Shown here one piece after another: positions 9,386-52,809 of a stretch of 64,000 nucleotides of DNA (positions within the stretch are counted from its first letter, which is position 1; every line of letters starts with the position of its first letter). A program made the position numbers and the translations under genes. Origin of the DNA: a virus (taxonomy: Duplodnaviria; Caudoviricetes); the IMG/VR virus record IMGVR_UViG_3300037067_011041, positions 1-64,000 of that record; one strand, written 5' to 3'. The notes below the pieces were generated by a model. The model ran no database searches and had not been told where the DNA came from. It saw only the letters and a program-made list of their open reading frames with translations.

Positions 9386-9386
9386 C

Positions 9387-9959
9387 ATGGCAATGCCCGT
9401 GCTGATTAGCGATGGTGAGCGACTCGCCACTATTGATCCGGTGTCGCGATCTTTGCAGTCGATCGACCATCCTCACCATGAAATTCACGAAGGGGTGAAT
9501 TACCGTGCGTCGCTTACAGCAAGCGTCGGCAGCGGAAACTCGATCACGCTGACAATTACTACCCCGGCCGCTCCCAAGCAATGCCATATGTTGCTTGAAG
9601 TTACTACCGGTAACTCGGCAAACGCAGTTGTGTATGAAGCCACTGCACTCACCGCCAACACCGGAAATGCGATCACACCCAGAAACGCCAACAGGAATTA
9701 TCCTGACAACAGCACAGCCACTGTGGTAGCAAATGCCACCGTAAATACAACCAACCGAACTCAACTTGTCAACACGTTCATTGGTCAGCCAGGAGCCAAT
9801 CCATTTCAGTCGGATCTAGGCGGACAAATCGCGTCGAGGCATGAATGGGTTTTGAAGCCCGCCACGTCCTACACTGTTCAACTTACTGAGACTGGGGCCA
9901 CAACTCAGTTGATGCACATCGGAATGGACTGGTACGAACATTCACCTGGGGAGGCGTAA
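9387..9959 (+). CDS. hypothetical virion-associated protein with a sequon cluster
   Basis: GGAG RBS; HHEIHEG; DNSTATVVANATVNTTNRT. Confidence 0.7.
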   Translation: MAMPVLISDGERLATIDPVSRSLQSIDHPHHEIHEGVNYRASLTASVGSGNSITLTITTPAAPKQCHMLLEVTTGNSANAVVYEATALTANTGNAITPRNANRNYPDNSTATVVANATVNTTNRTQLVNTFIGQPGANPFQSDLGGQIASRHEWVLKPATSYTVQLTETGATTQLMHIGMDWYEHSPGEA

Positions 9960-18584: not shown

Positions 18585-21500
18585 CAACGTATGCTCCGCT
18601 AGTACAAATTGCGGGCGAAGTACATCGGCTTGATGCTGCCGATGCACTTGCAATATCGACTATCGATGTTGCTACGCTTCTATTGACCGGCAACATGCAA
18701 ATCAACGGCACTGCCATCACTGTGAATGGCAGCAGCATCACATCAAACTTGATTTCAAACTGGAATACGGCGTACGGCTGGGGCAACCACGCTGGCTTGT
18801 ATGATCCTATCAATGAAGCATCTGGGATCATGTCAAACCATGAGAGCACGTACAATCACACCCACTACAACACTGCGTATAGTTGGGGTGACCATTCTGG
18901 CTTGTATGACTTGCTTGGGACCGCTGCTAGCGCTGTCACTACGCACGAGTCTACCTACAATCACAACAGCTTCGGGCTGTCGATTGGGGCTCCGACAACT
19001 GCCAATCAAATATACCAAGCCACTGGAAATGGAACTGGCGCGTGGACGACCAATATCGTCGGGCTTACTTCGCTCACCGTAGACAACATCACTATCGATG
19101 GAAGCAAGATCACTGGTCTTGGCACAATCGATTTTGATGACGAGAATCTTTGGACTCTTGGATGGATAAAAGTAGGAAACTGGACCATTCCGAATGGGTC
19201 GGCGCCAGCCAATTCTCTATTGATTACAGCTACAGCCAACACGCCTGCCTGGCAGGCATCGAGCGCAAACACCCTTCTCACAGCCAATGCCACAGGCATC
19301 ATTCAGTGGTCATCGCAGCCGTGGAATTTTAGTGACCCAGGGCCAACAACCGACAACCAGATACTCCAGGCAACCGGCGCTGGCACAGCAGCATGGACCA
19401 CAGACGTGCAAACACTCACGTCATTGCAGGTTGACAACCTGACTATTGATGGCAGTGGGATTACATCTACTGGCGATCTGTACCTCACTGTGGCCGTTGG
19501 CAGTAACATTCATTTTGACGGAAGCGGGCTACTCAAGATCAGGGATTTAAGTGATGGTTCAAATATACGAATTCAGGTAAACCTCACAAATACGCGGACA
19601 CAATTCTATGGTCCGGATGAAGTCGAGTATGTCATAATAGAGCCTTATTCTGGCGGGCAGGTCTGGTCAAAAGTTCCAGTGCGCATTACAGCGAACAATG
19701 TGGCCGCCACGTATGGTACGGCTAACAATGCCTCGGTGTACTATGACGGTACAAATTTTGTCATTGATCCAGACACAGTAGGCAGTGGAAATTTGGTGGT
19801 AGGGGGTAATGAGACCGTTAATGGAGTTCTCAAGACCGCAGGAACCCACGTGTCAGTGAGACGCCATGTGTTCGATTACTATCAGAACAGCGCGACACTT
19901 ATTGGCACGATGAAGATTCGCTTGCCTTTTGGCTTTGACAATATCCATCACACCATCAGAATTCGTGGCTATCAATATACCTCGGGAGACAATGACGGCG
20001 CGTGGGAATGTACTTTGGGCGGCTACCCATACTCGACCATGACGTGGTACGCGATGGGCGGTTTTGAGTCGAAGGCACCATTTACCACAGTGAGAGCCGC
20101 CCACGATGGCACAGATTGTTGCTATCTGCTAGGAACGGAATCGACTGTCTGGTCATATCCACATATCGAAATAGAGATATCCTATCATCCGTCGCGTGAC
20201 AGCGTTTTCAACGGAAGTTGGAACATCGCCTTCTCATCAAATGAGGCTGGCGACTGGTCACTGACGAGTGTCGCGGACGTTCCAATGTACCATGCGTCAG
20301 GTACTATCATTCCACGATGCACGGCTGACAATCAGATTCTTCAGGCCACGGCTACCGGCATAGCTGCATGGACTACAGACGTGCAGACACTTACGTCGTT
20401 GCAGGTCGACGATCTCGCAATCAATGGGCAGTCGATAATATCGGCTGGCGCATTATACTTGTATAGTGACACTGCTAATATCATTTTGCGGGCCCAAACG
20501 TCTGGCGGCGTGTACATAGATACGTCTAGTAAGTTTTGGGTACGCACTGAAGGTAGTTACACGACACGTTTTACTGTAAACGCCGTAGACGGCTCTGTAG
20601 GCATCGGAAGCGACAATCTGTCGAACACTGGTGCTTACATGAACGTTTGGACAACTGGCACCGGGATAGCTTCTCAGTTCCTTGTGACGGGACAAGCTTA
20701 CTCATCTGATAGCGGTGCATATTCAATGCGTGTGGCAACACAGGCATACCCGGCCAACGGACAACAGGCGCGGCAAATTAACATAGAGGGTAGTGTAAAA
20801 GTAGACACTGGTAATACGGTCTCCTGGTTGATTGGTGAAATGATAAATCCAATCACCAAGAGCGGAAACGGCACCATCACGAACGCCGCCAGCCTCTATG
20901 TATACCCACAAACAGTAGGCGCAACGAACTACGCTATCATTGTGACTGGGGGTGTGTCCCGATTCAATGACTCTGCTGTGTTGTCATTCGGTTCAAGCTC
21001 GGATGCTACCATAACTTACGATGGCTCCGATTTGATAGTTGATCCTGACGCTATTGGCAGTGGGCACCTCAAGATAAATGGTGCGACTGATATTGTCGGC
21101 GGCTTGACTGTTGACGGCATAAGTGTCTCTGGTACGCTACAGATTGGTAGTAGTGATGTATGCCGCGTGTTGAGCGAGAACAAGACCTACTACGTGCGAA
21201 CTACAGGGAATGACACAACCGGCGATGGGAGTTCAGGAACTCCATGGCTAACGGTTAGTAGAGCCCTTGACGAAATCTACAAATGGGTAGCCGATGAAAA
21301 CACAATCACAATTGACGTAGGTGAAGGCACATTCAATGAATCCACACTGTCACCAACCTACGCGTACGGGTCCAATTTGTATGTAGTAGGCGTTTCTGAG
21401 ACTCACAATGCTGGTTGTGCAGTGTCAGCCATTGGCAGTATAACAGCATTGGAAAGTGGTTTGGAGTACATTGATTTCACAATCACGCTTCCAGTTGGTT

Positions 21501-22264
21501 ACACATCAGCAACGGGCCAGTACATTATTTGCAAAACCGCGAGCGGCGGCACAAATGAACACCTTACTCTTGGTGTTCATGAAGTAGTTGGTTGGGACTC
21601 CGGTAATCGCGCCGCCACAGTTCGATGTGTTCGTCGAGCCGGTGTAACTGCTGTTCCTAGTGGCGCCATTTCATTGACAGACATTCGAGTCATCAAGACT
21701 GTGTTGTCATTTTCATCTGGTCATGGTGTCTCAATGACTGGCGCATACCATGGCGGTAATTGGAACTCTCTTGTGCTTAAAGGAAACGCATCTGGTTATG
21801 CGTTGAATTTGCTTAGCGGTGCATCGTTTTCTGCCGACACAAGTTTTGGAACCAGTAATTGGAACTATACTATCTATTGTGCGGGCAATGGGAATTTCTT
21901 TGGCGATTCCACTTGCCATTCATTTTGTCGAGGCTCGTTAGTTCGAGTGCAAAATGGTGGTATTGCACAACTAAGATACAACGCTGTTCTTACTGGAGCT
22001 AGAACTCAGGGTATTTTCTGCTTTGTTGGCGGGACTGTGGCCGCATATCAGGTTCAAATGGCGACGTGTGGTAATGCCGACGGAGTTCTTTGTTACCAGG
22101 GAGGCTTCGTTGATATCAGCAGCGGGTACATTCGTGATGGTAACCCCACTGGAACTGGATGCAATGCAAATCGAGGCGGTGGCATCGACGCTACATCTGC
22201 TACCATTTCTGGTTACACTAGCAGCACAAGCACGGCAACAAACGGCTATATTATAGGACCATAA
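18581..22264 (+). CDS. long fibre/spike protein with internal repeats and a C-terminal beta-helix-like domain
   Basis: 1227 aa, T/S/G/N-rich; WNTAYGWG.H x2, NQILQAT..G.AAWTT x3, YYVRTTGND.TGDG. Confidence 0.8.
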   Translation: MTTYAPLVQIAGEVHRLDAADALAISTIDVATLLLTGNMQINGTAITVNGSSITSNLISNWNTAYGWGNHAGLYDPINEASGIMSNHESTYNHTHYNTAYSWGDHSGLYDLLGTAASAVTTHESTYNHNSFGLSIGAPTTANQIYQATGNGTGAWTTNIVGLTSLTVDNITIDGSKITGLGTIDFDDENLWTLGWIKVGNWTIPNGSAPANSLLITATANTPAWQASSANTLLTANATGIIQWSSQPWNFSDPGPTTDNQILQATGAGTAAWTTDVQTLTSLQVDNLTIDGSGITSTGDLYLTVAVGSNIHFDGSGLLKIRDLSDGSNIRIQVNLTNTRTQFYGPDEVEYVIIEPYSGGQVWSKVPVRITANNVAATYGTANNASVYYDGTNFVIDPDTVGSGNLVVGGNETVNGVLKTAGTHVSVRRHVFDYYQNSATLIGTMKIRLPFGFDNIHHTIRIRGYQYTSGDNDGAWECTLGGYPYSTMTWYAMGGFESKAPFTTVRAAHDGTDCCYLLGTESTVWSYPHIEIEISYHPSRDSVFNGSWNIAFSSNEAGDWSLTSVADVPMYHASGTIIPRCTADNQILQATATGIAAWTTDVQTLTSLQVDDLAINGQSIISAGALYLYSDTANIILRAQTSGGVYIDTSSKFWVRTEGSYTTRFTVNAVDGSVGIGSDNLSNTGAYMNVWTTGTGIASQFLVTGQAYSSDSGAYSMRVATQAYPANGQQARQINIEGSVKVDTGNTVSWLIGEMINPITKSGNGTITNAASLYVYPQTVGATNYAIIVTGGVSRFNDSAVLSFGSSSDATITYDGSDLIVDPDAIGSGHLKINGATDIVGGLTVDGISVSGTLQIGSSDVCRVLSENKTYYVRTTGNDTTGDGSSGTPWLTVSRALDEIYKWVADENTITIDVGEGTFNESTLSPTYAYGSNLYVVGVSETHNAGCAVSAIGSITALESGLEYIDFTITLPVGYTSATGQYIICKTASGGTNEHLTLGVHEVVGWDSGNRAATVRCVRRAGVTAVPSGAISLTDIRVIKTVLSFSSGHGVSMTGAYHGGNWNSLVLKGNASGYALNLLSGASFSADTSFGTSNWNYTIYCAGNGNFFGDSTCHSFCRGSLVRVQNGGIAQLRYNAVLTGARTQGIFCFVGGTVAAYQVQMATCGNADGVLCYQGGFVDISSGYIRDGNPTGTGCNANRGGGIDATSATISGYTSSTSTATNGYIIGP

Positions 22265-23714: not shown

Positions 23715-24473
23715 ATGGCTCGAATCGAAATGCGTGACGTTACCATCTATGTCATGGATGGTCTTAGCGGGACGGCAAACTTGACCTCCAACGCCACCGC
23801 AAACGACACGACCCTGAACATCAACACGGTCGCGTTGAATACCACTGCCAATACCCTGGTGCCCATTGGTGCCCGGCTGACAATCAACGGCGAAACTACC
23901 CAGACGGTTCACACTGTTACGGCGCGTACGCCCACCGACAACGGTCCCACGACCAACATCACCATTACCCCGGCTGTTGGAGCGGGAACTTTCAATAGCG
24001 GCAACGCTGAAGGGCAGCTTACCTTCCTGCCGCAGAGAATCGAGATCAAGATCGGCGAGGGTAACCTCACTTGGACCGAGACGAAGGAATATGAGTACCT
24101 TCGGGAACGCGGTGATCTTGACTCCGTCAAGGAAGGCGACGAGCAACCGGTCGAGATGTCCCTTGAGTTCATCTACGACTACATCAAGACTCAATCGGGT
24201 CAGGCCATTACCCCGGTCGACGCCCTGAAGCAACTTGGCGAGGCGTCCGAGTGGGTGTCGAGTTCGGCCGATTTGTGCGAGCCCTACGCCGTCGACATTC
24301 TCGCGAAGCACTGCGTTCCGTGCGGAACCGACTATGACGAAGACGTGCTGTTTACCGATTTCCGGTACGAATCGCTGGATTTCGATATGGGTGCTGCCAC
24401 CGTTGCCGTCTCCGGACGTTGCAACGCAAGCTCGCCCACTGTCACTCGATCGAATGACGCCGAGTGCGCGTAA
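23715..24473 (+). CDS. major tail (tube) protein with a T/N-rich insertion
   Basis: GAGGAG RBS; high-expression codon bias; precedes the chaperone and tape measure genes. Confidence 0.75.
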   Translation: MARIEMRDVTIYVMDGLSGTANLTSNATANDTTLNINTVALNTTANTLVPIGARLTINGETTQTVHTVTARTPTDNGPTTNITITPAVGAGTFNSGNAEGQLTFLPQRIEIKIGEGNLTWTETKEYEYLRERGDLDSVKEGDEQPVEMSLEFIYDYIKTQSGQAITPVDALKQLGEASEWVSSSADLCEPYAVDILAKHCVPCGTDYDEDVLFTDFRYESLDFDMGAATVAVSGRCNASSPTVTRSNDAECA

Positions 24474-25718: not shown

Positions 25719-28700
25719 ATGGCCGAGATCACCCAGAAGCTAGGATTTGATGCTGGCGACGCCATCAGGAACTTGTCTTCCTTGACTGATGCTATTCTCA
25801 AAGCCAACTCGGCTATGACTAGCATGAAGTCGGCATCTAAAGGCGCTGCTGCTTTGGCCGCCGCTGAGAAGCAGATAGTCAAGACTAAGAATTCCGCCAA
25901 AGACTTCACCATTTCATGGCAGACGTTGGTTCGAGTTCTTGAGACCCAGCTTATTGTGCGAAGTCTCAACTTGGTGACCCAAGCCCTGCAAGATTCGGTT
26001 GAGCAGGCTCGTTTACTCGGGCTGGCAATCGAAGAAATTCGCACCATTGATGAAAAGGGGCGGGGCGCCGCCAGTCTGTCTGCTGACATCCTTGCTTTGT
26101 CTGATGCCATTGGTAAGACCCCTGTGGACGTCGCGGAAGGCGTTTATCAGACATTGTCCAACCAAGTAGTTGAGGCGGGTGAAGCTTTCAATTTCACATC
26201 CACTGCTGCCAAGCTGGCCGTAGTGACGGTAGCTGAGACCGGCGAAGCTGTAGACGCATTGTCGTCTATCATGAATTCGTACGGGTTGGAAGCGTCTGAG
26301 ACAGAGCGGATTGCCGGAACTTTGTTCCGTACAGTAGACTTGGGACGCTTGCGTCTTGGAGAGTTGGCGGACATTATTGGTCGTGTCACCCCAATCACAG
26401 CCCAACTGGGAATAACTTGGGAAGAGACTGCCGCTTCGATCGCCACCATGACTCAACAGGGCGTTCGAGCCGACACCGCCATCACGCAGTTGCGAGCGGT
26501 AATCACCCGCCTAATCAAGCCTACAGATGACGTCACAGCGATCTTCCATAAGTGGGGTGTTGTAGACGGCAAGCAAGCCATCGAGACATTCGGCGGCCTG
26601 CGAGGCGTTCTGGCAAAGTTGCAAGACGAAACAGGTAACAGTTCCGAAGAGATGGCGGAATTGTTGCGAAACGTCCGCGCCATTACCGGCGCGTTCGGCA
26701 TCATGGTTGACGGCGGAAAAACCGTCGAGTCCGTGCTGAGAGAAATTGAAGGCAGTTCCAACGCGGCCAATGTCGCATGGGAACAGTTCGCACAGTCTGA
26801 TGCACAGCGTCTGACTCAGTCTACTCAGGAATTCAGCAATCAGATAACACGCCTTGGACAAATAGGTCTTCCGGCTGTCGCTGGTTCTCTGGAAGCTGTA
26901 AACTACTTCCTTGAAGTGCAGGCTGACGGCTGGAGCACTTTGCTTGGCTTGTACAGTGAAGCAGAAAAATCGGCTCGCCTGTTTTCTATGACCATCGAGG
27001 CGGGCAATGATCGCGCTAGCCAACTGCAAAAAACTCTTGACGATGTTCAGAAGGGCGCCTACGATAATCTTCGTAAAGCTTCAAATCTGTATTACACTGA
27101 AGCCAATAGGAAAGAGCAGCAGCTTGCTCAAGTAAGAGCAAACTCGGTAAGACAGGCAACGGCCGTTCTTGAAGACGCTGCTGATTCCTTGACTGACTTT
27201 TACAAAGACAGCTTGAAGGGTGTCGAGCAGTTTGCCGATAAAGCTTCAGATCGTGTTAAGCAGGCATTCGAGAAAATCGCCGACGTTCAACGAGACGTTC
27301 AAGACCAGACTCTTGAATATCGCCTTGACAATGAAGAGGACGGTCTTCGCAGGCTTACCATTCTTGATGAAGAGTTTGCCAAAGCCCGCGAGGCTCGTAA
27401 CAGAGCGATCTCGAACATTGGCGCCGACCCATCATCGTTGGATGAAGCAGAGGCTGCCAATGCTAGGTTGGTAGACCTTGGAAAGCAGCGGGTGGCGCAG
27501 GCCAAGGAACTCGGCTACGAAGGACGACAGCTTGCTAGATACCAGGACGACGTTGTTAAGTCTGTGTCGGCCGGTGTTCCGATTCTGAAGTCATTCGCAG
27601 ATATTCAGAAGAGCGCTGAAGTGTCCGCGCGACAACAAGCGAAGGTTCTGGAGGACAACTTTGCAAGAACCGAGGCTATTGGAAAGCGAATCAAGGAGAT
27701 CTTCAAGGACGGTCTGATCGATCCAAAAGAGAAGGTGGAACTCGAAGCTCTTCGTATTGAGCAAGAGCGACTGAATGCCACCTCTAAAGAGGGCATGGAG
27801 ACTCTCAAAGCCTTTGGCCTCGATATCAACTTCAACAAGGTAGTCGATGGTCTCACCTTGGCATTAAACAAAGCCCAGAAGGATTGGGATGCCGAAGTAA
27901 AAAGAGCCGAGGCAGCCTTCCAACGGGCACTCATTCCGATCAAAGTCAAACTCGAACTCTCTGAGGGCGGGCTCCGCAAGCAAATCGCTGATGAGTTCAA
28001 TCTTGAGCAGTTTGAAGGTGAGACACTTGATTCGTTTGCCAGGAGAATTGATTCGTTTGCCGCCGACACTTTGGATGGGGTGCGAACGGGCTTCAATGAT
28101 ATTGCCATAGCAGAGTCGAAAGTGGCCGCTCCTCTGGCAGTGATAAACAGAAGCTTGAAGGAGATGCAGGCACTGACAGCGCAAAATCTGTCACAGGCGT
28201 TGCGCGAACAGCAGGCCGAGAATTCCTTTACCGTAGTACGCAGTCTTGAAGAGCGCCAACGTCTTGAGGCTCAGATCATTGAGGCTGCAAAGGCGGATAT
28301 CGCGGTAAACACACTGCTTGACCAAAAGTTCAGAGAGGCAAACACGCTTCTTCAACAGCGTGGCTCGCTTCAGGAAGGCACTATTGCGGCTCTTCGTACT
28401 CAGTATGATGAGGCTTTCAAAGCCGGTGAGATTACGAAGTCTCAGTTGAATTTGTACACAACGATGGCCGACGAAATCGCGGCCGTCGCTGAAAAGCTTC
28501 GGGCAAACAATGAGCTACGGGCTCAGATGCCAGAACAGACACAGGTTCTTCTTCTTGAGCAGTTGTCGGCCAAGCAAAATGAACTTGCGGCCCAGAAGAA
28601 GGTCGAGGCCCAAGTAACCGCCGAAATGTCTGGCGACTATGCCAGAATCAACAGCATGGCGGACGACTTGTCTGGCGCTACTCAAACTATTGGAGACAAC

Positions 28701-29198
28701 TCAGCTAACACAGCCGCCAGCACCGGCACAGCAGCCACTAACATGGGGCAAGTCAGTCTGTCGTCTGGTACTGCCGCTACAAATCTTAGTAGCGGGGCCA
28801 TGTCAGCCGCAGCAATGGCAGCCAATCTTGAACGAGCCGCAGCAGCAGCAGCCGCAGTTCAAGCCGCTGGAGGCAGAGGGGCCCTTACTGTGACCAACCC
28901 GTATGTCGGAGGAAACTACGCCGACGGCGGGCTAGTCAGAGGCAAGGACAGAACCTTAGTCTCGGCAGCAAATGACGAGATGATTGTAAACGCCAAGAGT
29001 TCACGTAGATTCTTCTCGGAACTCAACGCGATGAACCAAGGCAACCGACCTGTCTTCCGTGAACAGGGCGGCCCAGTCACCAATGTCGGTGACGTCAATG
29101 TCACGGTAAACGGTGGAGACTCCTCGCAGCAAACGGTGCGCGAGATCGGCCACGCTCTCCGTCGCCAGATTCAGCGTGGCAACATAAAGCTTCGATAA
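25719..29198 (+). CDS. tape measure protein (TP901-like core)
   Basis: 1159 aa, Ala-rich helical; G....EE..A.IAT.T..G....A.T.LR motif; YADGGLV C-terminus. Confidence 0.9.
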   Translation: MAEITQKLGFDAGDAIRNLSSLTDAILKANSAMTSMKSASKGAAALAAAEKQIVKTKNSAKDFTISWQTLVRVLETQLIVRSLNLVTQALQDSVEQARLLGLAIEEIRTIDEKGRGAASLSADILALSDAIGKTPVDVAEGVYQTLSNQVVEAGEAFNFTSTAAKLAVVTVAETGEAVDALSSIMNSYGLEASETERIAGTLFRTVDLGRLRLGELADIIGRVTPITAQLGITWEETAASIATMTQQGVRADTAITQLRAVITRLIKPTDDVTAIFHKWGVVDGKQAIETFGGLRGVLAKLQDETGNSSEEMAELLRNVRAITGAFGIMVDGGKTVESVLREIEGSSNAANVAWEQFAQSDAQRLTQSTQEFSNQITRLGQIGLPAVAGSLEAVNYFLEVQADGWSTLLGLYSEAEKSARLFSMTIEAGNDRASQLQKTLDDVQKGAYDNLRKASNLYYTEANRKEQQLAQVRANSVRQATAVLEDAADSLTDFYKDSLKGVEQFADKASDRVKQAFEKIADVQRDVQDQTLEYRLDNEEDGLRRLTILDEEFAKAREARNRAISNIGADPSSLDEAEAANARLVDLGKQRVAQAKELGYEGRQLARYQDDVVKSVSAGVPILKSFADIQKSAEVSARQQAKVLEDNFARTEAIGKRIKEIFKDGLIDPKEKVELEALRIEQERLNATSKEGMETLKAFGLDINFNKVVDGLTLALNKAQKDWDAEVKRAEAAFQRALIPIKVKLELSEGGLRKQIADEFNLEQFEGETLDSFARRIDSFAADTLDGVRTGFNDIAIAESKVAAPLAVINRSLKEMQALTAQNLSQALREQQAENSFTVVRSLEERQRLEAQIIEAAKADIAVNTLLDQKFREANTLLQQRGSLQEGTIAALRTQYDEAFKAGEITKSQLNLYTTMADEIAAVAEKLRANNELRAQMPEQTQVLLLEQLSAKQNELAAQKKVEAQVTAEMSGDYARINSMADDLSGATQTIGDNSANTAASTGTAATNMGQVSLSSGTAATNLSSGAMSAAAMAANLERAAAAAAAVQAAGGRGALTVTNPYVGGNYADGGLVRGKDRTLVSAANDEMIVNAKSSRRFFSELNAMNQGNRPVFREQGGPVTNVGDVNVTVNGGDSSQQTVREIGHALRRQIQRGNIKLR

Positions 29199-37996: not shown

Positions 37997-38602
37997 TTAG
38001 CCACCAAGGAAACGCATCAACTCAGCGTAGAGCCGGGCTGTGGCGAGGCAATCAGCTAACGCGTTGTGTGCATTATCAAGCTGAATGTCGAATCGCTTGC
38101 ACAAGGCCGTCAAACTAAGCAGGTGGAATGGGTGCTTCCTTCCATGCCACACGTACAGGTCATTTACCGTTGCGGCCAAGGCCATGGTGTCCCTTGGATG
38201 CACGTGCCAATATGCGTTGAAGCCGTCCATCCCAAGCATGTGAATTAGGAAGGCTCTCTCAAAGCCCCAATTGTGAGCTAGAGGAACAAGTCGCTTACCG
38301 AAAGGCAGATTCAGTTTGTGCCACCACTCCTCGAAGAGTTCTACTCCTCGTTCTTGTGTTGGGCACCCCTGAAGAGAGTCCAGTGTTATTCCGTGCTTGC
38401 GGGTGGCTTCTTCGCTTATTCGATCTGGGTAGTCCGGCATCAGGCCGGGCATGTAATAAAACCGAAGATCTGGATGCGGTTCAAAGTGTTGGTTGAGCGG
38501 GACGCATGCGATCTGAACAATCTCATGGTATCCCGCCAACACGCCAGTCGTCTCCACATCAACGGCACACAAGATGTTGCCGTTCATATTGAGAAGACTC
38601 AT
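37997..38602 (-). CDS. DEDDh 3'-5' exonuclease
   Basis: VDVETTG, AHNWGFE, HNALAD. Confidence 0.9.
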   Translation of the reverse strand: MSLLNMNGNILCAVDVETTGVLAGYHEIVQIACVPLNQHFEPHPDLRFYYMPGLMPDYPDRISEEATRKHGITLDSLQGCPTQERGVELFEEWWHKLNLPFGKRLVPLAHNWGFERAFLIHMLGMDGFNAYWHVHPRDTMALAATVNDLYVWHGRKHPFHLLSLTALCKRFDIQLDNAHNALADCLATARLYAELMRFLGG

Positions 38603-39420
38603 GATTGATCCTCTTGCGGCAGTGTGGCGCCGTCAACAAGGGCCTGAACAATGTCGTTAATTCGATCTCGCAGTTCATTGTCTTGCGGCATGCTCAAGAG
38701 ATAGAATTGAACATTGTTCTCGGGGACGATGATCTCTTCGATGTACACGTCTCCTTCCCCATCGGCCGGGACGATCGGGAGCCCGAAAATCTCTCCACAG
38801 TCGGGGCACTCAAAGCCCCCGTCTTCCAGCGAAATGCAATTCGTCTCATCGCATTGTGGGCATACCAACAGGTCAAAGACATGCCCGCATTCGCACTCTT
38901 TTCCAAAGTCGGTTTCCCATACGATTTCCGAGCCACATAGCGGGCAGTGGGTATCTTTGAGCAGGGGCACTGGCGTAGATTGGAATTCGATTGTCATCGA
39001 ATCAACGTCGGCTAGTTTCGCTCCGTTGACATAGATCTCGCCAACAGGTTCCAGTTTGGCTTCCCGCTTGGCCTTCTCGGCCGCCCAGTATGCCATGCGA
39101 GCGTAGAACACTTCCTTGTCGATGAGCGGGCCAGTGGTGTTCAGTTCCATCCAGGCACACAGGTTCCAGATGGCGTGCCCGAGATGATGGCAGCCAGAGT
39201 CCTGGTCGTATACCTCTCCGCCCAGATAATAGTCAAGGTGACGGCACATGGAATCGAGGTATTCCTCGTCGGGCTTGCCTCCTTTCTTCCAGTTTCCTTC
39301 GTTGTACTTGTTGGCGCCGAACTCTTTCACTCGGGCCACGGCCTCAAGGGCTCGACGGAAACTTCGCATGAAATATCCAAGCTTCGGTTTGCCTTCATTG
39401 AATCGCAATGCGCCGCTCAT
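38599..39420 (-). CDS. DUF5664-type dATP/dGTP diphosphohydrolase fused to Zn ribbons
   Basis: RFNEGKP...FGANKY...NWKKG...DSMCRH...DSG.HHLGHA.WN; C-terminal CPLC/CECG/CPQC/CPDC. Confidence 0.8.
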   Translation of the reverse strand: MSGALRFNEGKPKLGYFMRSFRRALEAVARVKEFGANKYNEGNWKKGGKPDEEYLDSMCRHLDYYLGGEVYDQDSGCHHLGHAIWNLCAWMELNTTGPLIDKEVFYARMAYWAAEKAKREAKLEPVGEIYVNGAKLADVDSMTIEFQSTPVPLLKDTHCPLCGSEIVWETDFGKECECGHVFDLLVCPQCDETNCISLEDGGFECPDCGEIFGLPIVPADGEGDVYIEEIIVPENNVQFYLLSMPQDNELRDRINDIVQALVDGATLPQEDQS

Positions 39421-45322: not shown

Positions 45323-45350
45323 TTGACATTTGGAATCCATAAGGTATACT
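45323..45350 (+). promoter_or_regulatory. sigma70-like promoter TTGACA-N16-TATACT (leaderless)
   Basis: ATG 6 nt after the -10 box. Confidence 0.85.
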
Positions 45351-45356
45351 TGAGCT

Positions 45357-47276
45357 ATGCGTGAGAATATCAAGCTGATTACCGAGACCAGCAAGGGCAC
45401 TCGTTTACTTGTGCCAGCGGTCATCGAAAGGGAAGACGGCCGCATATACTTCGTGCAATCCCCGTACGCATTGAAGAACGAAATCAAGGCGATGAAAGGG
45501 TCACGATGGCACGGCTTTGTCCCTGACGACGAGCGAAAGATCTGGTCGGTAGACGATTGCACACGCAATAACTTCCAGCTTGAATACATGACGGGCGGAA
45601 ACCCCTATGCAAATTGGGATCAGCCCCTCAAGAACTTTGGCTACTCACGCCCACTGTTCGGCCATCAAAAGCTGATGGCCGACCACTGCTTGACGTACCA
45701 CTACGAGATTCTTGCGGCTGAGATGGGTGTGGGTAAGTCGCTTTCGGCCGTAGAGGTAATGGAGAAGTCAGGCTTCTACGATTGGTGGTATGTTGCTCCC
45801 AAGTCTGGCCTAGCGGCGGTGGACCGAGAGTTCACCAAATGGGGGTTGAAATTCCAGCCAAAGGTAATGACGTACGAGCGGCTTCGCATTGACATCGAGC
45901 GGTGGGAGAAAGGTGCCCCGGCCCCGAGAGGTGTGATCTTCGACGAGTCATCTCGATTGAAGTCGCCCAACTCAAAGCGTACCAAAGCCGCCCAACATTT
46001 GGCCGACGCTATTCGGGCCGAGTATGGTTGGGATGGTTTTGTCATTTTGATGTCTGGAACACCTGCCCCCAAGTCCCCAGCGGACTGGTGGTCGCAGTGC
46101 GAGATCTGCTACCCTGGCTTCATAAAGGAAGGATCGTATCAGGCGTTTGAATGGCGACTAGGCATCTTTGAACAACAGGAAACGGACCAGGGCAAGTTCT
46201 GGAAGCGGCTGACGTGGCGGGACGACGAAAAGAAATGTGACGTGTGCGGGCAGTACGCCGACCATGAGAACCACAGCACAGACGATCTATTTGGAGCAGG
46301 TGACAACGCGCACGTCTTCGTGCCAAGCAAAAACGAAGTCTCATATCTCTACGACCGTCTCAAAGGACTTGTGCTGCCCCTGGCAAAGAAAGACTGCCTT
46401 GATATTCCCGACAAGGTTTATCGGGAGATCATTCTTGAGCCGTCCTCTACAATTAAGCGGGTGGCTCAAGCGCTGGCAAAGTCTGCTCTTACAGCGATCC
46501 AAGGGTTGACTTGGCTACGCGAACTGTCAGACGGCTTCCAGTACCGAGAGGTACAAAGCGAAGAAGAGCCGTTCATCCCTTGCCCGGTGTGCAAGGGCAC
46601 CGGTGAGACCGGTCAGTGGTTCAATGTCCATACGGACGAGGCCGTTCATATTGATGCTGAACTGGCCATCGACGACGACGATTACCATTTCAGATCGGCC
46701 GAATGCCCTAAGTGCCATGGCAAGTGCAACATCCCGAACATGATTCGGGAGACGAAGGAAATCAAGAGCCCGAAAGATCAGGCTCTTCGTGACTTGCTTG
46801 AAGAGAATGAAGACCAAGGCCGCATCGTTGTGTTTGGCGGCTTCCAGGGTACCATCGATCGGGTAGTCAATATCTGCCACAAGCAGCAATGGGACGTGGT
46901 GAAAGTCGATGGTCGCGGCTGGAAGATACTGAAACACGACGGCGAGAAGACGCCAAGAGACGTAAAGCCCCTCGACTACTGGGCCAACATGGACAACGAG
47001 CGAGTTGCATTTGTTGCCCACCCAGAGTCTGGCGGCATGGGCTTGACTCTTACTGAGGCCCGAATGTCTGTGTTCTTCTCGAACGACTTCAAGCCTGAAT
47101 CACGCTCACAAGCTGAAGACCGTATCCATCGCCCCGGCATCGACATGAATAAAGGGGCAACGATAGTCGACTTATTCCACCTTGGAACAGATAGGAAAGT
47201 GCTAAACGTGCTCCGCGACAATCGTCGCCTAGAGCAACTCACCCTTGGAGACATGAGAGAAATGCTATGCGACTAG
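45357..47276 (+). CDS. SNF2-like SF2 helicase with Zn-finger insertions
   Basis: EMGVGKS, FDESS, MSGTP, GGMGLTLT, QAEDRIHR. Confidence 0.9.
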   Translation: MRENIKLITETSKGTRLLVPAVIEREDGRIYFVQSPYALKNEIKAMKGSRWHGFVPDDERKIWSVDDCTRNNFQLEYMTGGNPYANWDQPLKNFGYSRPLFGHQKLMADHCLTYHYEILAAEMGVGKSLSAVEVMEKSGFYDWWYVAPKSGLAAVDREFTKWGLKFQPKVMTYERLRIDIERWEKGAPAPRGVIFDESSRLKSPNSKRTKAAQHLADAIRAEYGWDGFVILMSGTPAPKSPADWWSQCEICYPGFIKEGSYQAFEWRLGIFEQQETDQGKFWKRLTWRDDEKKCDVCGQYADHENHSTDDLFGAGDNAHVFVPSKNEVSYLYDRLKGLVLPLAKKDCLDIPDKVYREIILEPSSTIKRVAQALAKSALTAIQGLTWLRELSDGFQYREVQSEEEPFIPCPVCKGTGETGQWFNVHTDEAVHIDAELAIDDDDYHFRSAECPKCHGKCNIPNMIRETKEIKSPKDQALRDLLEENEDQGRIVVFGGFQGTIDRVVNICHKQQWDVVKVDGRGWKILKHDGEKTPRDVKPLDYWANMDNERVAFVAHPESGGMGLTLTEARMSVFFSNDFKPESRSQAEDRIHRPGIDMNKGATIVDLFHLGTDRKVLNVLRDNRRLEQLTLGDMREMLCD

Positions 47277-47485
47277 ACGAATTCCTCGACGAATGCGAAC
47301 TGTACGGCGACAATGAATCCGAAGTGTTCATTGAGTTCAACGGGGTTGTGTACGACATCAGTGACATCCAAGGCACGTCGCAAGGAGTCATTTTGATCGT
47401 CGACACGCAGGACGAAGATCGTGACATGCACGGGCTCGCAGATATCGATGACTGCATTGATGTGGAGTGGGAACCCCATGTCTGA
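47267..47485 (+). CDS. small acidic hypothetical protein
   Basis: ORF track; D/E-rich. Confidence 0.55.
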   Translation: MRLDEFLDECELYGDNESEVFIEFNGVVYDISDIQGTSQGVILIVDTQDEDRDMHGLADIDDCIDVEWEPHV

Positions 47486-47622
47486 AGACGACCTTCCACG
47501 ACTCGTATCCAGGATGTTCAAGGTGATAACTGCTATCATCGTTGCATCATTTGTCATTTCGATCTGTACTTTGACGGCCGCCGTCGCCGGACTGATCTAT
47601 CTTTTCTTTCAATGGACCTGAT

Positions 47623-48813
47623 ATGAAAACTTGCCCAGCCTGCCAGTCTACCAGCACAGAGCCCATGTTCAACATGGGCAAGCAACCCTTGTCGCTGGCG
47701 GCCATGACGCCTGATCCTATGGAGTCTTACTGCCTAGAGACGTACTCGATCAACCTGATGATTTGCAGGCATTGCAGCCACGTCTTCAACGCCGATTTCA
47801 ATCCTGACAATGTCACTTATAGCCAAGCGGGTTGTCGAATGTACAACAGCGGGGCGGGCTGGCAAGATCACATCGAAGAAGTTTACGCGATGTTGAAAAA
47901 CATCCCGGTCGACTTGGTCGTCGAGATAGGCGCCGGCGACTGTGAATTCCTGTCAGGTCTTGATGCTGTGGACGCCGGTGGCCAGCCGTCTGTCAAGCTA
48001 GCCGTCGACCCGTGCGAAGCTGTTCTTAGGGCTGAAGAACTCGGCCTGCAATTTGATCGGGACTACTTTGTTCCTGAAGAGCACATGCCTAGCGGCGACG
48101 GGGCCGTCTTAATTGTCATGCGGCATCTTCTTGAGCACATGGAACGGCCGCGAGAAATCATCGAGGACATTTGCCATCGAGCACTCTCAAGAAGCAAAGA
48201 CAAGACTTGGGTGTATATCGAAGTACCCAACTGCGAAGTGGCCCTTCGCAAATGCCGAATCGAAGATTGGACGTATGAGCACGTTCAACATTTCACGTCG
48301 AAGAGTATGGCTTGCTTATTGCGAAACTGCGGAATAAGCCAGTTTGCCATTCTCCCAAAGTACGGTAGCGAAGTCCTAAGCTGCTTTGCTTGTATCAACC
48401 CGGCCGAGGAACGAAAAGACGAAATCGACGTCGAGGCAGTAATCGAAAGCTACCGCAAAACCGAAGGCGGCATTTCGCGCGAGCGACAGTGGATGCACGA
48501 TTCACTGGGGCAGATCGCCTTGTGGGGCGGCGCTGGTAAGTCGGCAATGTTTTTGAGGAAGTTCAACCTGCCGCCTCACGCCACTGTGGTTGACAGCCAT
48601 AGTGAGAAGTGGCTTATGTGTGTTCCAGGAACTAAGATCAAGATCTCTGATCCCAGCGTGCTGTTGCGATATCCAGTGCAATACATTGTTGCCACCACGT
48701 CGTGGCGCGCAGAGGATATCGCGAAGGAGATCGTTGAACGAAACATACCGTGCAAAGGACTACTGAAGTTCGAGGGCGGGCAACTTGTGGAGGTGCCTCT
48801 TGGCCGCGAGTAA
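47623..48813 (+). CDS. SAM-dependent methyltransferase, NDP-sugar C-methyltransferase-like
   Basis: N-terminal CPAC...CRHC Zn motif, VEIGAGD, RHLLEH, IEVPN, YEHVQHF, C-terminal LWGGAGK...VVD. Confidence 0.8.
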   Translation: MKTCPACQSTSTEPMFNMGKQPLSLAAMTPDPMESYCLETYSINLMICRHCSHVFNADFNPDNVTYSQAGCRMYNSGAGWQDHIEEVYAMLKNIPVDLVVEIGAGDCEFLSGLDAVDAGGQPSVKLAVDPCEAVLRAEELGLQFDRDYFVPEEHMPSGDGAVLIVMRHLLEHMERPREIIEDICHRALSRSKDKTWVYIEVPNCEVALRKCRIEDWTYEHVQHFTSKSMACLLRNCGISQFAILPKYGSEVLSCFACINPAEERKDEIDVEAVIESYRKTEGGISRERQWMHDSLGQIALWGGAGKSAMFLRKFNLPPHATVVDSHSEKWLMCVPGTKIKISDPSVLLRYPVQYIVATTSWRAEDIAKEIVERNIPCKGLLKFEGGQLVEVPLGRE

Positions 48814-50677
48814 GAATCGGTTGAAGCAGTTGGAAAAGCAGCGTAGGCAGAAACTTCTCAAGGAGAAGAAGGAAGCCGAAAAGGCGGCTCTTGTTGTCGC
48901 CCCGGCCGACGCATCGAAGCAGGTGCCAACAATGAATGTTGATGCCTTCATGCTTGCCGTCGCCAATCGTGACGGCAAGGCGTGGGATGCTCTCATGCAG
49001 TTCATGGGCTTCTTTGAGCGCCATCACTATCGTCATTTTGGAACGCCCGACATTAAGCGACTGAACGAATTCGCTTTCTGTGTATCGGCAGCCATGCTGC
49101 GAGAGGATTTCCTTCCCACTCCTGCCCAAGCTGGCAAGCTTGTTCAGATGGGTCATTTGATGCAGGCCCTATTCGCCTCGTCTTGCTATCGTAATACCAA
49201 CACGCTACTTGACTGCGTGATTCCGATGTCAGGCAACGTCCCGAAGATTCTCACCCTGATGAATCCCCGGTGCGAGATTCAAATCGACCAAGCAAAGTTG
49301 TTCGACGCCGATCCGATTCTTTCTTCGGTGTGGTACATGTCATATCTTCTCGGCTTGTCGTCTCCGACAGGCTTGATTCAGAAGAACATGTATCGGCATC
49401 TGCACAACATGGATTATCGGTGGATTCCTACGTCGCATGTCATGTCCGGATTGTATTTCTCTTGCACCTACCACAATCCGGATAGTGTCCGGCGGGTCAA
49501 GAGCATCATCAATCGAGGCATCAAGTCGCGTGGCAACGCCCCCGCGATAATCAACACTCCCGATCCGAAGTCGATTGCGATCGTCACCAGCCGGTGGCAT
49601 CGCAACCATGCCGTGTACAAGTCAGCGTCGCCCCTTGTTGAGCAGTTGGTCGGCAAGTATCGTTTGACGCTTGTGTGGACGGCCCCGAAAGCCAACATGC
49701 CGAAGACAGCCGTCACCAGCTATTTCGATAAGGTGGTGAATGCCCACTTCCTGCAAAACGGTGAACTGGTGCTTCCTCCAGAGGTTGTGAACAATGACTT
49801 CCAGATGGTGTACTTCCCGGATATCGGGATGAGCGACGAATCGATCTGGATGTCCAACATGCGAATGGCTCCGATTCAAGCCGTAGGCTACGGGCACCCC
49901 GACACAACCGGCGACGGCAATGAGATCGACTACTTCATTGGCGGCGACGTTGAGAAGGACGCCACCGACGCGTATTCCGAGACCATGGTGTTGCTGCCCG
50001 GCCTAGCTCAAGAGCCCGCGTGGCCGACCGCCGAACGCAAGCACAATTACAAGGACGATGGAATCGTTCGAGTGAACTGTGTCTGGGGCCCTGACAAATA
50101 CAACTTCTCACTACTGAAGGTTCTGGAAGAGATCAACAAGCGTACACGCGAGATCAACCCGGAATCGAAACATGAGATTCATTTGTTCGGCAGCCCCGGA
50201 ATGAATCGGCACGCCGCACTGCCGCCCTTCATTCGGGAAGTCACTCAACTGCTTCCTAACGCAGTAGTACACGCCGAGCAGGAATACTACGACTACATGG
50301 AGAACGCAGAGATGCACGACTTCTCCCTGAACTCGTTTCCATTCGGCTGCTACAACGTGCTGATTGAAAGCCTCTACCTGGGGCTGCCCTTCCTGACAGT
50401 GGTAGGTAGCAGGTTTTACAGCCGTGCTGGCATGTATTTGAACCAGCAGATCGGCATGGAAGAAAACAACTTTGATGATGCCAATGGAATGATCGACAAG
50501 GCCGTCAAGTTGATTACCGATCCGATCGAGTTGCGTCGGCAGCGCGACCGCCTCGCTTCTATCGATCTGAAAGAACGCCTCTTCACACTGAAAGGAAACC
50601 ATTTCCTAGAAGCCGTCGAATACATCATCGCAAATCACCCATTCAAACAAACGAAGATCATCGGAGCAAACCAATGA
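48800..50677 (+). CDS. HMW1C/ApNGT-like (GT41) protein glycosyltransferase
   Basis: YFSCTY, HAVYKS, YFPDIGM, RMAPIQAVGYGHPDTT, FPFGCYN...LGLP; TTG start with GGAGG RBS; no TPR repeats. Confidence 0.85.
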   Translation: MAASKNRLKQLEKQRRQKLLKEKKEAEKAALVVAPADASKQVPTMNVDAFMLAVANRDGKAWDALMQFMGFFERHHYRHFGTPDIKRLNEFAFCVSAAMLREDFLPTPAQAGKLVQMGHLMQALFASSCYRNTNTLLDCVIPMSGNVPKILTLMNPRCEIQIDQAKLFDADPILSSVWYMSYLLGLSSPTGLIQKNMYRHLHNMDYRWIPTSHVMSGLYFSCTYHNPDSVRRVKSIINRGIKSRGNAPAIINTPDPKSIAIVTSRWHRNHAVYKSASPLVEQLVGKYRLTLVWTAPKANMPKTAVTSYFDKVVNAHFLQNGELVLPPEVVNNDFQMVYFPDIGMSDESIWMSNMRMAPIQAVGYGHPDTTGDGNEIDYFIGGDVEKDATDAYSETMVLLPGLAQEPAWPTAERKHNYKDDGIVRVNCVWGPDKYNFSLLKVLEEINKRTREINPESKHEIHLFGSPGMNRHAALPPFIREVTQLLPNAVVHAEQEYYDYMENAEMHDFSLNSFPFGCYNVLIESLYLGLPFLTVVGSRFYSRAGMYLNQQIGMEENNFDDANGMIDKAVKLITDPIELRRQRDRLASIDLKERLFTLKGNHFLEAVEYIIANHPFKQTKIIGANQ

Positions 50678-51945
50678 CGATACTTAACAACCAAACCGTT
50701 GCCCAGATAAAGGACCATCTGCTGCGAAAGGACATGACGCAGAAGGAGATTGGCAAGAAATACGGCGTCAGCCGTTCGGTCGTCAGCGACATTGCGTGCG
50801 GGCGGGTGCACAAGGACGTTAAGCCCGAGAACGAGGCCACTGTAGAAGAGACGGAGATCTTCCACCTGCAAGCCGAGATCGCGCACCTACGAGAAGAGAG
50901 AAACGATGCGCACAGAAAGTTGAAGCAAGCTGCCAAGACGCAAGGCTTGTTCCAGGCCATCGTTGAAGAGATGGAAGAGCGGGTCCAGCCGATGCCCGAA
51001 CTTCCTTCCGCCCGGCCCGTCTACAGTAAGCCCGAGTCCGGGGTGGTCGAAGAGCATCTTGTGATGCACCTGTCAGATGGCCACCACGATCAAGTTATCA
51101 CTCGGGATGACACCGGCGGACTTGAGCAGCACAGCTTTCCCATCAGCATGTGCCGGGCCGAGTGTCTTGTTGACACGACCCTGAAATGGACTCAGGAAAC
51201 GCTGGCGCCTCAGTTCAGATTTCCGTCTCTCACGGTTCTGGCCTACGGGGACCACACATCCGGTGAAATTCACGGTGCGGTTCAGCGTAGCTACTTCCGA
51301 AATTGCTTCAAGAACTGCCACGCGATCGGACAGCTTCATGGATTGATGTTCCGCGACATGGCCCCGTACTTCGAGCAAGTGAACGTCATTTACGTCCCCG
51401 GAAATCATGGACGAAGAAGCACACAGAAAGACTACCACGGGGCGCACGACAATTGGGACTACCTCATTGGAAAGACGGCCCAGTTGTACTGCCGGGATAT
51501 CAGCAACATCACCTTCATGATTCCGAATTCGTTCTCTGCCAACGTCGATATTGGCGGCATCGGATTCCATGTCTTTCATGGTGACGATGTTCGATCGCAA
51601 CTCGGCATCCCCTGGTACGGGCTGGAAAAGCGACGCCACCGTCTCATGGCTCTTGATGGTGTCCGGCAAGGCGTTCCCATCCGCTACTACTGCTGCGGGC
51701 ATTTCCATCGCCCCGGCACTACGAGCGAAGTGAACGGCGAAATGCTTATCAATGGCTCGTGGGTAGCCAGCGACGCATACTCTTACAACTCATTCGGCGG
51801 CTTCACTGAGCCGACGCAACTGATCCACGGTGTCAACAAGAAGTACGGCATCACATGGCGACTCCCAGTGAAGATTCGCTGCGAGTACGAGCAACAAGGA
51901 CCGAAACGATACAAACTAGTCGACATGGATGACGTCAGCATCTGA
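50674..51945 (+). CDS. HTH plus calcineurin-like metallophosphoesterase
   Basis: QKEIGKKYGVSRS HTH; SDGH, GD, PGNHG, HGD, GHFH. Confidence 0.85.
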   Translation: MTILNNQTVAQIKDHLLRKDMTQKEIGKKYGVSRSVVSDIACGRVHKDVKPENEATVEETEIFHLQAEIAHLREERNDAHRKLKQAAKTQGLFQAIVEEMEERVQPMPELPSARPVYSKPESGVVEEHLVMHLSDGHHDQVITRDDTGGLEQHSFPISMCRAECLVDTTLKWTQETLAPQFRFPSLTVLAYGDHTSGEIHGAVQRSYFRNCFKNCHAIGQLHGLMFRDMAPYFEQVNVIYVPGNHGRRSTQKDYHGAHDNWDYLIGKTAQLYCRDISNITFMIPNSFSANVDIGGIGFHVFHGDDVRSQLGIPWYGLEKRRHRLMALDGVRQGVPIRYYCCGHFHRPGTTSEVNGEMLINGSWVASDAYSYNSFGGFTEPTQLIHGVNKKYGITWRLPVKIRCEYEQQGPKRYKLVDMDDVSI

Positions 51946-52017
51946 CGGACACGGAACGTGGTGGCCGGGCATACCGGCCACCGTACAAATTACCACCTTT
52001 TACTTGGAGTTTTGATT

Positions 52018-52752
52018 ATGGCAGGTGCCATCGCTACCCTTCTTACCACCGCGAAAACAATCTCGAAAGTCGCCACAGACATGCGTGCCAATCTACGGCA
52101 CACCTACAATGAACTAGTGGCTCTTCAGGGATTGGGCGATCCTACGTTGGCGGCCCCGTACTTGAAAGCGTCGCACGTGGAAACCATCCCGGCCCATCTC
52201 GACACGATTGCGTCCGGCAATTTCACAGTGACCATCAACTTCCCGAATTACGGCGTTGCCGTCACGACTGGAAACATTGCCTTCGACGCGGCCGAAGCCG
52301 CTATCCAGACGGCGATCGACACCGCATTGGACACCCAGGTTATCGTCGCCACGTACAATGCGGGCGACGTCGATGTTGCTCTCACAGGCAACCTGACTGA
52401 AAACGCAGCTACGATTACCGCCAACGGCGCGACCGTGAACGGCGCCTATATGCTCGTCACCACAGCAAACGCTGGCGATCTGGACGCCGACGAGTTGGCC
52501 ACACCCGTCGCTGCCACCGTGGGCACGATGAATCGGCCAGCAGAGGCCATCCTGGCTATCTATAACTGCATCACGCCTGCTGCGGCGGTAACCCCGCAAG
52601 GTCTCACGCCTGCTGTCGCTGATTATGTGACAGGCGATAACCCCCTTTCGATCAGCCCTGCTCTCAAGGCCCTGCTGATTAGCGAAGTCGAAGCCAGCGA
52701 GAACGCTGTTCTCGGGGCGGCCCTGCGAGCCATTCCCGACTGCGTGGAATAG
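52018..52752 (+). CDS. T/A-rich hypothetical protein (virion-like composition)
   Basis: GGAG RBS; flanked by a hairpin and a terminator. Confidence 0.7.
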   Translation: MAGAIATLLTTAKTISKVATDMRANLRHTYNELVALQGLGDPTLAAPYLKASHVETIPAHLDTIASGNFTVTINFPNYGVAVTTGNIAFDAAEAAIQTAIDTALDTQVIVATYNAGDVDVALTGNLTENAATITANGATVNGAYMLVTTANAGDLDADELATPVAATVGTMNRPAEAILAIYNCITPAAAVTPQGLTPAVADYVTGDNPLSISPALKALLISEVEASENAVLGAALRAIPDCVE

Positions 52753-52779
52753 GAAACATCTTCGTTACCGATGGATCGG

Positions 52780-52809
52780 AGGCGGCGGCACCGTGCCGCC
52801 GCCTTTTTT
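52780..52809 (+). terminator. rho-independent terminator
   Basis: GGCGGCGGCAC-C-GTGCCGCCGCC plus TTTTTT. Confidence 0.85.

Follow-up and report, generated by a model that had tools for sequence, protein, structure and literature searches.

The first 64 kb of a 117,327-bp IMG/VR virus record (IMGVR_UViG_3300037067_011041; CheckV completeness 100%), called the window below, belong to a siphovirus-like phage and carry two overlapping genes. One encodes a homologue of nucleoside diphosphate (NDP)-hexose 3-C-methyltransferases (hereafter MT), the other a GT41 glycosyltransferase (hereafter GT) related to the HMW1C-type N-glycosyltransferases (NGTs). With a confidence slightly short of even, we propose that the pair constitutes a translationally coupled, lineage-core, two-enzyme glycosylation module of the cytoplasm, for which a donor, a transfer step and an acceptor may be put forward. 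This reading is based on the full HMW1C/NGT architecture and intact nucleotide-sugar site of GT, together with the full TylC3/MtmC/TcaB9 architecture and Glu-His dyad of MT. In our judgement, the pair is a real phage glycosylation module, apparently not described before. It would probably sugar-coat some protein. Glycosylation of virion proteins is possible, no evidence here pointing there specifically, and the sequon-directed N-glycosylation of the tail that a first-pass annotation had proposed is not supported. The elements of the pair are as follows.

47623..48813, plus strand: NDP-hexose 3-C-methyltransferase homologue (MT), with a Cys4 zinc ribbon, an S-adenosylmethionine (SAM) domain and a C-terminal nucleotide-sugar domain
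48789..48793, plus strand: GGAGG ribosome-binding site of GT, within the 3′-terminal part of the MT gene
48800..50677, plus strand: HMW1C/NGT-like GT41 glycosyltransferase (GT), 625 aa, with an all-alpha domain and a GT-B fold, and no tetratricopeptide repeats (TPR)

The start of GT is the TTG codon at 48800, six bases past the GGAGG, as the first-pass annotation had placed it; the 89%-identical homologue P0002 has the same start. This codon precedes the end of the MT stop codon (48813) by 14 nt, and the location of the GT ribosome-binding site inside the MT gene implies translational coupling. The motifs by which GT had been recognized are all present in the translation of 48785/48800-50677, namely YFSCTY (residues 224-229), HAVYKS (275-280), YFPDIGM (343-349), RMAPIQAVGYGHPDTT (360-375), FPFGCYN (518-524) and LGLP (532-535). 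As had also been noted, there is no TPR array, none being detected by Pfam.

The homology of GT to HMW1C/NGT enzymes, proposed from motifs in the first-pass annotation, is now borne out by NCBIfam, by sequence and profile matches in the PDB and by Foldseek, all in agreement. GT matches the NCBIfam NGTferase family (NF049992) with E 8.6e-25 and 87.4 bits. When the single sequence is compared with the PDB by phmmer, ApNGT comes first (3q3e, 3.9e-22), AaNGT (8p0o/q) reaches 1e-20, and the ApNGT Q469A/M218A variant (8j30) also ranks well above XcOGT (1.7e-7) and SPINDLY (SPY; 3e-5). A profile built from 45 family members (alignment A1) matches ApNGT across residues 70-601 with E 4e-41, most of the all-alpha domain being included, whereas SPY and OGT are matched in the C-terminal lobe only (E 1e-15 to 1e-9). 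The AlphaFold2 model of GT (pLDDT 92, pTM 0.89) leads to the same ranking: Foldseek superimposes it on ApNGT and AaNGT (3q3e, 8j30 and 8p0q) with TM scores of 0.72-0.76 and E ~1e-27 over ~625-655 aligned columns, versus ~0.5 for SPY/OGT. GT is therefore an NGT-type, not an OGT-type, GT41 protein, and the best structural match to an O-glycosyltransferase that the first-pass annotation had feared did not materialize. No match to the region or to GT was found by blastn and tblastn in 50,697 GenBank phage records. A structure search of BFVD returned no NGT-like viral structure, the best hit (TMq 0.35) being a generic GT-B protein, and no description of a phage NGT was found in the literature.

The features that confer sequon specificity on NGTs were defined in two papers of 2023. 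In the AaNGT-peptide-UDP (uridine diphosphate) complex, the +2 Thr of the sequon is held by two residues of the all-alpha domain, Arg177 and Asp215; the R177A and D215A variants are inactive, and both residues are described as critical and as conserved in NGTs (PMC10507012). In ApNGT, the +2 Ser/Thr is anchored by Asp215, within the 215-DVYM-218 motif; the D215G/A/S mutants lose sequon stringency, and UDP is contacted by K441, H495, Y501, N521 and D525 (PMC10466321). These residues were mapped onto GT with HMMER alignments in native numbering, verified on 8j30, and the columns were rechecked in A1. The catalytic and UDP-contacting positions are kept in 45/45 members (K441 as K438, Y501 as Y504, N521 as N524, D525 as E528), and so are G370-H371-P372 and H274/H277, found as H272/H275. 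The sequon readers are replaced. The position of Arg177, whose mapping, resting on a Gly three residues downstream, is the less certain, is occupied by Tyr in 41 members and Phe in 4. That of Asp215, firmly anchored by a conserved Y-x-x-C-x-Y just after it, holds Gly (23), Ser (11), Cys (5), Ala (3) or Val (2), never Asp or Asn. The His214 position is Ser/Thr in the family, and the Q469 position carries a small residue (A/G/P/T/C) family-wide, as in the relaxed Q469A mutant of ApNGT. Near the acceptor readers, the family has conserved residues of its own: H205 and R212 are invariant, Y187 and D210 near-invariant, and position 221 is S/T.

GT thus shares with HMW1C, ApNGT and AaNGT (PDB 3Q3E, 8J30, 8P0Q) a soluble, cytoplasmic character and a full-length three-domain fold devoid of TPR. 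Also common to both are the Lys, Tyr, Asn and acidic contacts to UDP, the GHP loop opposite the acceptor Asn, and the paired His motif. It differs from them in being phage-encoded, in its low identity (~20%, far under the NCBIfam equivalog cut-off) and in the acceptor-side substitutions described above. Judging from the residues retained, the enzyme is probably active. Since Arg177 and Asp215 are missing throughout the phage family, N-X-S/T would not be its expected acceptor motif, and the sequences give no reason to expect such a specificity. The partner is also another one: an adhesin of the two-partner secretion (TPS) type or an alpha-1,6-glucosyltransferase accompanies the bacterial enzymes, whereas a sugar C-methyltransferase accompanies the phage GT. 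The linkage to an adhesin substrate (HMW1/TPS or autotransporter) was not found in any of 40 loci, where the neighbours are a helicase, the methyltransferase and an exonuclease. Nor does GT look like OGT or SPINDLY, in view of its lack of a TPR array and its weaker match to their catalytic domain.

The other enzyme of the pair, MT, is a member of the TylC3/MtmC/TcaB9-type NDP-4-keto-hexose 3-C-methyltransferase family. As a single sequence, it shows the Pfam signatures Methyltransf_13 (the zinc ribbon), Methyltransf_23 and Methyltransf_14, only Methyltransf_23 being above the cut-off, and against the PDB it returned noise only. A profile of 34 orthologues (A2) did give matches covering all three domains: MtmC (4rv9, E 1e-28; positions 11-379), TcaB9 (4e-21; positions 14-380) and KijD1 (5e-19). 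The same three proteins are the top Foldseek matches of the AlphaFold2 model (pLDDT 93.5). The zinc cysteines C4, C7, C48 and C51 are conserved; the catalytic dyad E224/H225 of TcaB9 corresponds to E219/H220, invariant in the phage family; and H172 falls exactly on the His of MtmC and no more than one column away from H181 of TcaB9. An equivalent of TcaB9 Tyr76 is not evident. Thus, the domain composition, the dyad and the second His are those of TylC3, MtmC, TcaB9 and KijD1. The phage enzyme departs from them by its ~18% identity and by the domain orientation in its model (Foldseek TM ~0.5). It also lacks accompanying dehydratase, aminotransferase and ketoreductase genes, and its partner is a protein-type rather than a natural-product glycosyltransferase. 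Neither a dehydratase/epimerase of the short-chain dehydrogenase/reductase (SDR) type nor a sugar nucleotidyltransferase (NTP_transferase) was found in the 117-kb genome; therefore, the 4-keto sugar would have to be supplied by the host. The prediction of an MT-GT complex (score, 0.00; mark, 0.32) speaks neither for nor against one.

From these properties, a possible course of events may be drawn. MT would act on a host-supplied NDP-4-keto-6-deoxyhexose to give a C-methyl-branched sugar donor. GT would then move the branched sugar, or a plain hexose, onto a side chain of an acceptor protein in the infected cell. The acceptor would be read by the family-specific all-alpha groove (Y187, D210, R212, H205, S/T221) and not by Arg177/Asp215. 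Because this groove replaces the two sequon readers, the motif would not be N-X-S/T, and the linkage may be N or O. As for the acceptor itself, our guess, made by analogy only, is that GT may modify structural proteins of the phage itself, those exposed at its surface and produced at a later stage of infection.

In our view, the best analogy for the phage pair is the recurrent coupling of GT41 enzymes and methyltransferases in the cytoplasmic glycosylation of structural proteins. In the flagellin glycosylation islands of enterobacteria, nearly all GT41 enzymes have a fused methyltransferase domain (PMC4875605). There too, a GT41 domain and a SAM methyltransferase are functionally coupled, and what is modified, in the cytoplasm, is a structural protein that polymerises and is exposed at the surface. 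The methyltransferase of the islands is a simple fused AdoMet domain, whereas that of the phage is a separate three-domain enzyme of the TcaB9 type. The flagellin glycans characterized in other bacteria are O-linked. Among phages, the cassettes of mycobacteriophages Che8, Corndog and Myrna reportedly comprise soluble glycosyltransferases, some with methyltransferases, and are said to decorate, by O-linkage, the phage's own capsid or tail proteins, as is thought or has been shown. The window pair resembles these cassettes as a phage-encoded soluble glycosyltransferase system. It differs in that theirs are enzymes of other families making O-linked glycans, with no NGT-like member, and in that the window pair is located in a replication operon (45323-52806) and not with structural genes.

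MT and GT are tightly linked. Forty loci were scanned, 3 from protein-database contigs and 37 from IMG/VR, and MT lies directly upstream of GT in 40/40, with GT identity down to 30%. The gene order ParB - helicase - ... - MT - GT - ... - exonuclease is conserved, the helicase being upstream in 38/40 loci and the exonuclease downstream in 38/40, the other two ending shortly after GT. Metagenomes contain more than 230 GT homologues (90% clusters), on contigs that reach 117 kb. The six genomes with a completeness rating of 100% (G000-G005) all have the pair, including five distant phages whose terminases are 60-67% identical and which have the tail module in common. The two genes thus belong to the core of a lineage of ~100-180-kb phages. 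Their evolution is much faster than that of their neighbours, with GT at 30-36% identity where the terminase is at 60-67%, and, in the same loci, phmmer E-values of ~1e-50 for MT versus ~1e-215 for the helicase. No relative lacking GT was available for a comparison of genomes with and without it, the sole candidate (G006) being a contig that ends within the MT gene.

Several variations on this arrangement were observed. In eight loci (L023, L024, L026, L028, L030, L034, L035 and L036), a second, tandem, full-length GT paralogue stands behind a single MT, which suggests sequential or dual-specificity glycosylation in those phages. In a distant clade (L018-L040; e.g. L022:11809-12891), an RNA ligase (PF09414 with the oligonucleotide-binding OB domain PHA02142) accompanies MT-GT, directly 3′ of GT in most of these loci and upstream of MT in L018 and L019. 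It flanks the pair in 22/40 loci overall, some of which also have RlaP and RNase T-like genes in the vicinity; the closer clade, which includes the window phage, has no RNA ligase and retains the pair. In one of the 40 loci (L002:8196-8807), a DNA-modification gene of the Mom family (PF25680) is found directly upstream of MT.

An exhaustive profile search delineated 615 GT-family clusters (50% identity) with E<=1e-30, of which over 150 have E<1e-84. Cellular relatives (P0132, P0157, P0156, P0222 and P0200) are fusions with methyltransferase, GT4, sulfotransferase or GT14 Branch domains, partners that are typical for glycan tailoring. In bacterial chromosomal relatives (L058), three tandem GT41-like genes are next to an SDR epimerase. 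A pattern scan of bacterial genomes gave two distant matches only, both in metagenome-assembled genomes, so the pair is not a prophage cargo gene of a known species.

Concerning transcription, the pair belongs to an operon made up of the following elements in addition to MT and GT.

45323..45350, plus strand: sigma70-like promoter, TTGACA-16-TATACT, 11/12 consensus match, heading the MT-GT operon
45357..47276, plus strand: SNF2-type helicase, operon gene 1 (Pfam Helicase_C, SNF2-rel_dom)
50674..51945, plus strand: exonuclease with helix-turn-helix and metallophosphatase domains, same operon (phrog_284, E 2.5e-33)
52018..52752, plus strand: 244-aa Ala/Thr/Asn-rich protein, final operon gene, kept in the closer clade (weak DUF3383 match)
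52778..52806, plus strand: intrinsic-terminator-like hairpin, 13 bp (9 GC) with a T-run, operon end

The next sigma70-like site after 45323 is at 52831. As the promoter and the terminator bracket helicase - MT - GT - exonuclease - 244-aa gene, the pair is assigned to a replication-type regulon. It lies ~11 kb from the last tail gene, and the replication block downstream of the tail genes comprises primase, ParB, the SNF2 helicase, the exonuclease and DNA polymerase. The 244-aa protein, for which a PHROG search gave no match, has a G-N-x-T motif (x = F/L/I) that is invariant in 10/10 orthologues (alignment A4); that it could be a co-transcribed substrate of GT is pure speculation.

Several points weigh against the proposal of a two-enzyme module that glycosylates the phage's structural proteins. 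No acceptor was identified. The promoter is shared with a helicase and an exonuclease, not with structural genes, and this setting would suit a role early in infection no less well, for instance in host take-over or in the modification of nucleic acids. The tail proteins, here and in relatives, have no sequon-specific signal. The supply of a 4-keto sugar by the host is assumed, no ketoreductase was seen in the phage, and we know of no GT41 enzyme that uses a thymidine diphosphate (dTDP) sugar or a branched-chain sugar. Finally, GT remains under the curated cut-offs, with 87.4 versus 1000 bits for NF049992 and, for the single sequence, 13.9 versus 25 for Pfam Glyco_transf_41 and 14.2 versus 27 for HMW1C_N.

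A more ambitious version of the proposal, which we regard as rather doubtful, would make GT the first enzyme of the soluble NGT class to come from a virus, with a rebuilt acceptor groove, and would have it put, with MT, a methyl-branched deoxyhexose on phage or host proteins. If true, a chemistry new to protein glycosylation would be part of the core of an entire lineage of environmental phages of 100-180 kb. Soluble NGTs are prized tools of glyco-engineering and, to our knowledge, only a handful have been characterized, from Pasteurellaceae-type bacteria. The present family is a very large uncharacterized sister group of NGTs, in which the catalytic core is intact and the acceptor-reading surface is different. 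If active on proteins, it would extend phage glycosylation past the O-glycosylation of mycobacteriophages and may offer new acceptor or donor specificities.

Other functions have to be considered. It may first be imagined that the target is a host protein, or a non-structural protein of the phage, modified early in infection in the service of host take-over or of counter-defence. Analogies are provided by phage ADP-ribosyltransferases and by effector glycosyltransferases of bacteria. The operon shared with replication genes under a sigma70-type promoter would agree with such a role, and a pair that is lineage-core yet fast-evolving would fit an arms-race interface, although variable substrates at the virion surface would equally predict fast evolution. 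However, no candidate target appeared among the gene neighbourhoods examined, and no phage is known to us that glycosylates proteins of its host, which also counts against the idea. On balance, we hold it to be unlikely.

A minority possibility, in our opinion quite improbable, is that the acceptor is a nucleic acid, either the bases of phage DNA or a tRNA or other RNA, MT and GT then being a hypermodification module. GT-B enzymes that glucosylate DNA do exist, as exemplified by the T4 glucosyltransferases, and the location of the pair among replication and nucleotide-metabolism genes would suit such an activity. So would the RNA ligase beside MT-GT in 22/40 loci, with its occasional RlaP and RNase T-like companions, and the Mom-family gene upstream of MT. 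Yet Mom occurs in only 1/40 loci, and the window phage and its closer clade keep the pair without any RNA ligase. The genome, when searched for enzymes that would provide a glycosylatable base, contained no ThyA-like hydroxymethylase, no tRNA-guanine transglycosylase (TGT)/DpdA, no Mom and no PurZ. Moreover, the characterized enzymes having the architecture of GT all act on proteins.

The idea put forward in the first-pass annotation was that of a classical NGT, adding hexose to Asn of N-X-S/T sequons in the tail tube, the fibre and the decoration proteins. The structural genes of the window are organized as follows.

10858-12519: terminase
12521-14383: portal, then scaffold
16076-17464: major capsid, then head-closure genes
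23715-24473: putative tail tube, assigned by position only (PHROG and Pfam matches, none)
25719-29198: tape measure, with distal tail proteins reaching ~37866

An NGT is indeed the nearest solved relative of GT, and the hand counts of sequons in the first-pass annotation were almost exact: 7 in the tail tube (for 15 Asn), 4 in the 9366/9387 protein, 5 in the 17847 protein, 7 in the 29633 protein, 6 in the 30793 protein and 1 in the major capsid. For the fibre, the high number stands and the exact figure does not, 22 being counted instead of ~19. These counts were compared with 1000 composition-preserving shuffles per protein for ~150 open reading frames (ORFs). Singly, only the tail tube is nominally enriched (7 versus 2.8 expected, p=0.01), one protein among the ~150. 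Genome-wide, 169 sequons are observed and 173 expected. When the tail set (17847-37866) is pooled, 78 sequons are found for 58.8 expected (z 2.8; z 2.4-2.6 under local shuffles within blocks of 10-50 residues), a modest excess that counts in favour of the idea and reflects a mild but real i/i+2 pattern. However, the mirror motif [ST]-x-N is more enriched than the sequon in the same proteins, with 110 occurrences for 58.6 expected (z ~7), including 75 T-x-N for 31, and its excess survives the local block shuffles. It was noted for the proteins of 17847-37866 and of 9366-9959. It was missing from the phage's own head and non-structural proteins, from the tail sets of lambda and T5 and from the homologous tails of five relatives.

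Comparison with other phages leads further. The tail set of T5, a control phage with no known NGT, reaches a sequon z of 2.0, and that of lambda 0.2. In five complete relatives that do carry GT, the homologous tails give sequon z-scores of -0.5, 0.8, 1.2, 0.9 and 2.6, and mirror-motif z-scores of -0.7 to 1.5. This five-relative comparison is the most decisive of the sequon results: sequon density therefore follows the Asn/Ser/Thr content and not the presence of GT. It also disposes of a reverse acceptor motif (T-x-N) as a feature of the family, since the five GT-carrying relatives have no excess of it. At the level of single proteins, 14/14 tail-tube orthologues are raised in both motifs (mirror 4-10 versus ~2.5, sequon 4-9 versus 2-3). 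They keep N-x-S/T, with a variable middle residue, at three positions (columns 27, 121 and 241 of alignment A3), which is suggestive in favour of sequon use, yet indistinguishable from ordinary conservation in a 77%-identical alignment. At column 85 of A3 (N83 of the tail tube), the Asn of the NIT sequon is replaced by Cys in five orthologues (CIT/CVT), an unusual exchange of N and C in a position that is conserved otherwise.

Thus, composition and an i/i+2 alternation of polar residues, which favours the mirror motif more, explain the counts, and the sequon clusters lose the meaning that the first-pass annotation had given them. With no sequon-specific signal, with Arg177 and Asp215 substituted in 45/45 members, the Asp215 replacements including those of the ApNGT D215G/A/S mutants that lose stringency (PMC10466321), and with the pair in a replication operon, self-glycosylation of tail, fibre and decoration proteins through sequons must be considered very improbable. 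As a caution, raw N-X-S/T counts in phage tail proteins rich in Asn, Ser and Thr are no evidence of glycosylation.

Least probable of all appears to be a small-molecule, lipid or polysaccharide-precursor acceptor, the pair being then an auxiliary metabolic one for host envelope glycan remodelling or for making a methylated glycoside: TcaB9-type methyltransferases are best known from natural-product and surface-glycan deoxysugar pathways and bacterial GT relatives stand beside an SDR epimerase in a chromosomal cluster, but the combination of all-alpha and GT41 domains has so far been associated with protein acceptors, genes for a flippase, a polymerase or a lipid carrier are missing from the neighbourhood, and the enzymes are soluble.

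Some other features of the window deserve mention. The protein encoded at 38599-39420 (minus strand) has an N-terminal domain of the MazZ-type dATP/dGTP diphosphohydrolases (PF18909, E 4e-24), a domain type also seen in phages with 2-aminoadenine (Z) genomes; no homologue of PurZ/adenylosuccinate synthetase was found in the 117-kb genome. The 674-aa ORF at 5778-7802 (plus strand) contains a LAGLIDADG domain (residues 505-572) and has weak PHROG matches to thymidylate synthase, ribonucleotide reductase and terminase families, which seem to reflect a shared segment of homing-endonuclease or intein-like type, not one of those enzymes. Finally, the 1227-aa "fibre" (18581-22264) is encoded within the head module, after the major capsid gene and before the head-closure genes. 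At the same position, relatives G001-G004 have either a 570-aa protein or three to five tandem paralogues of ~220 aa, none of which matched the window fibre by phmmer. The window protein may be a variable head fibre or decoration, not a tail fibre.

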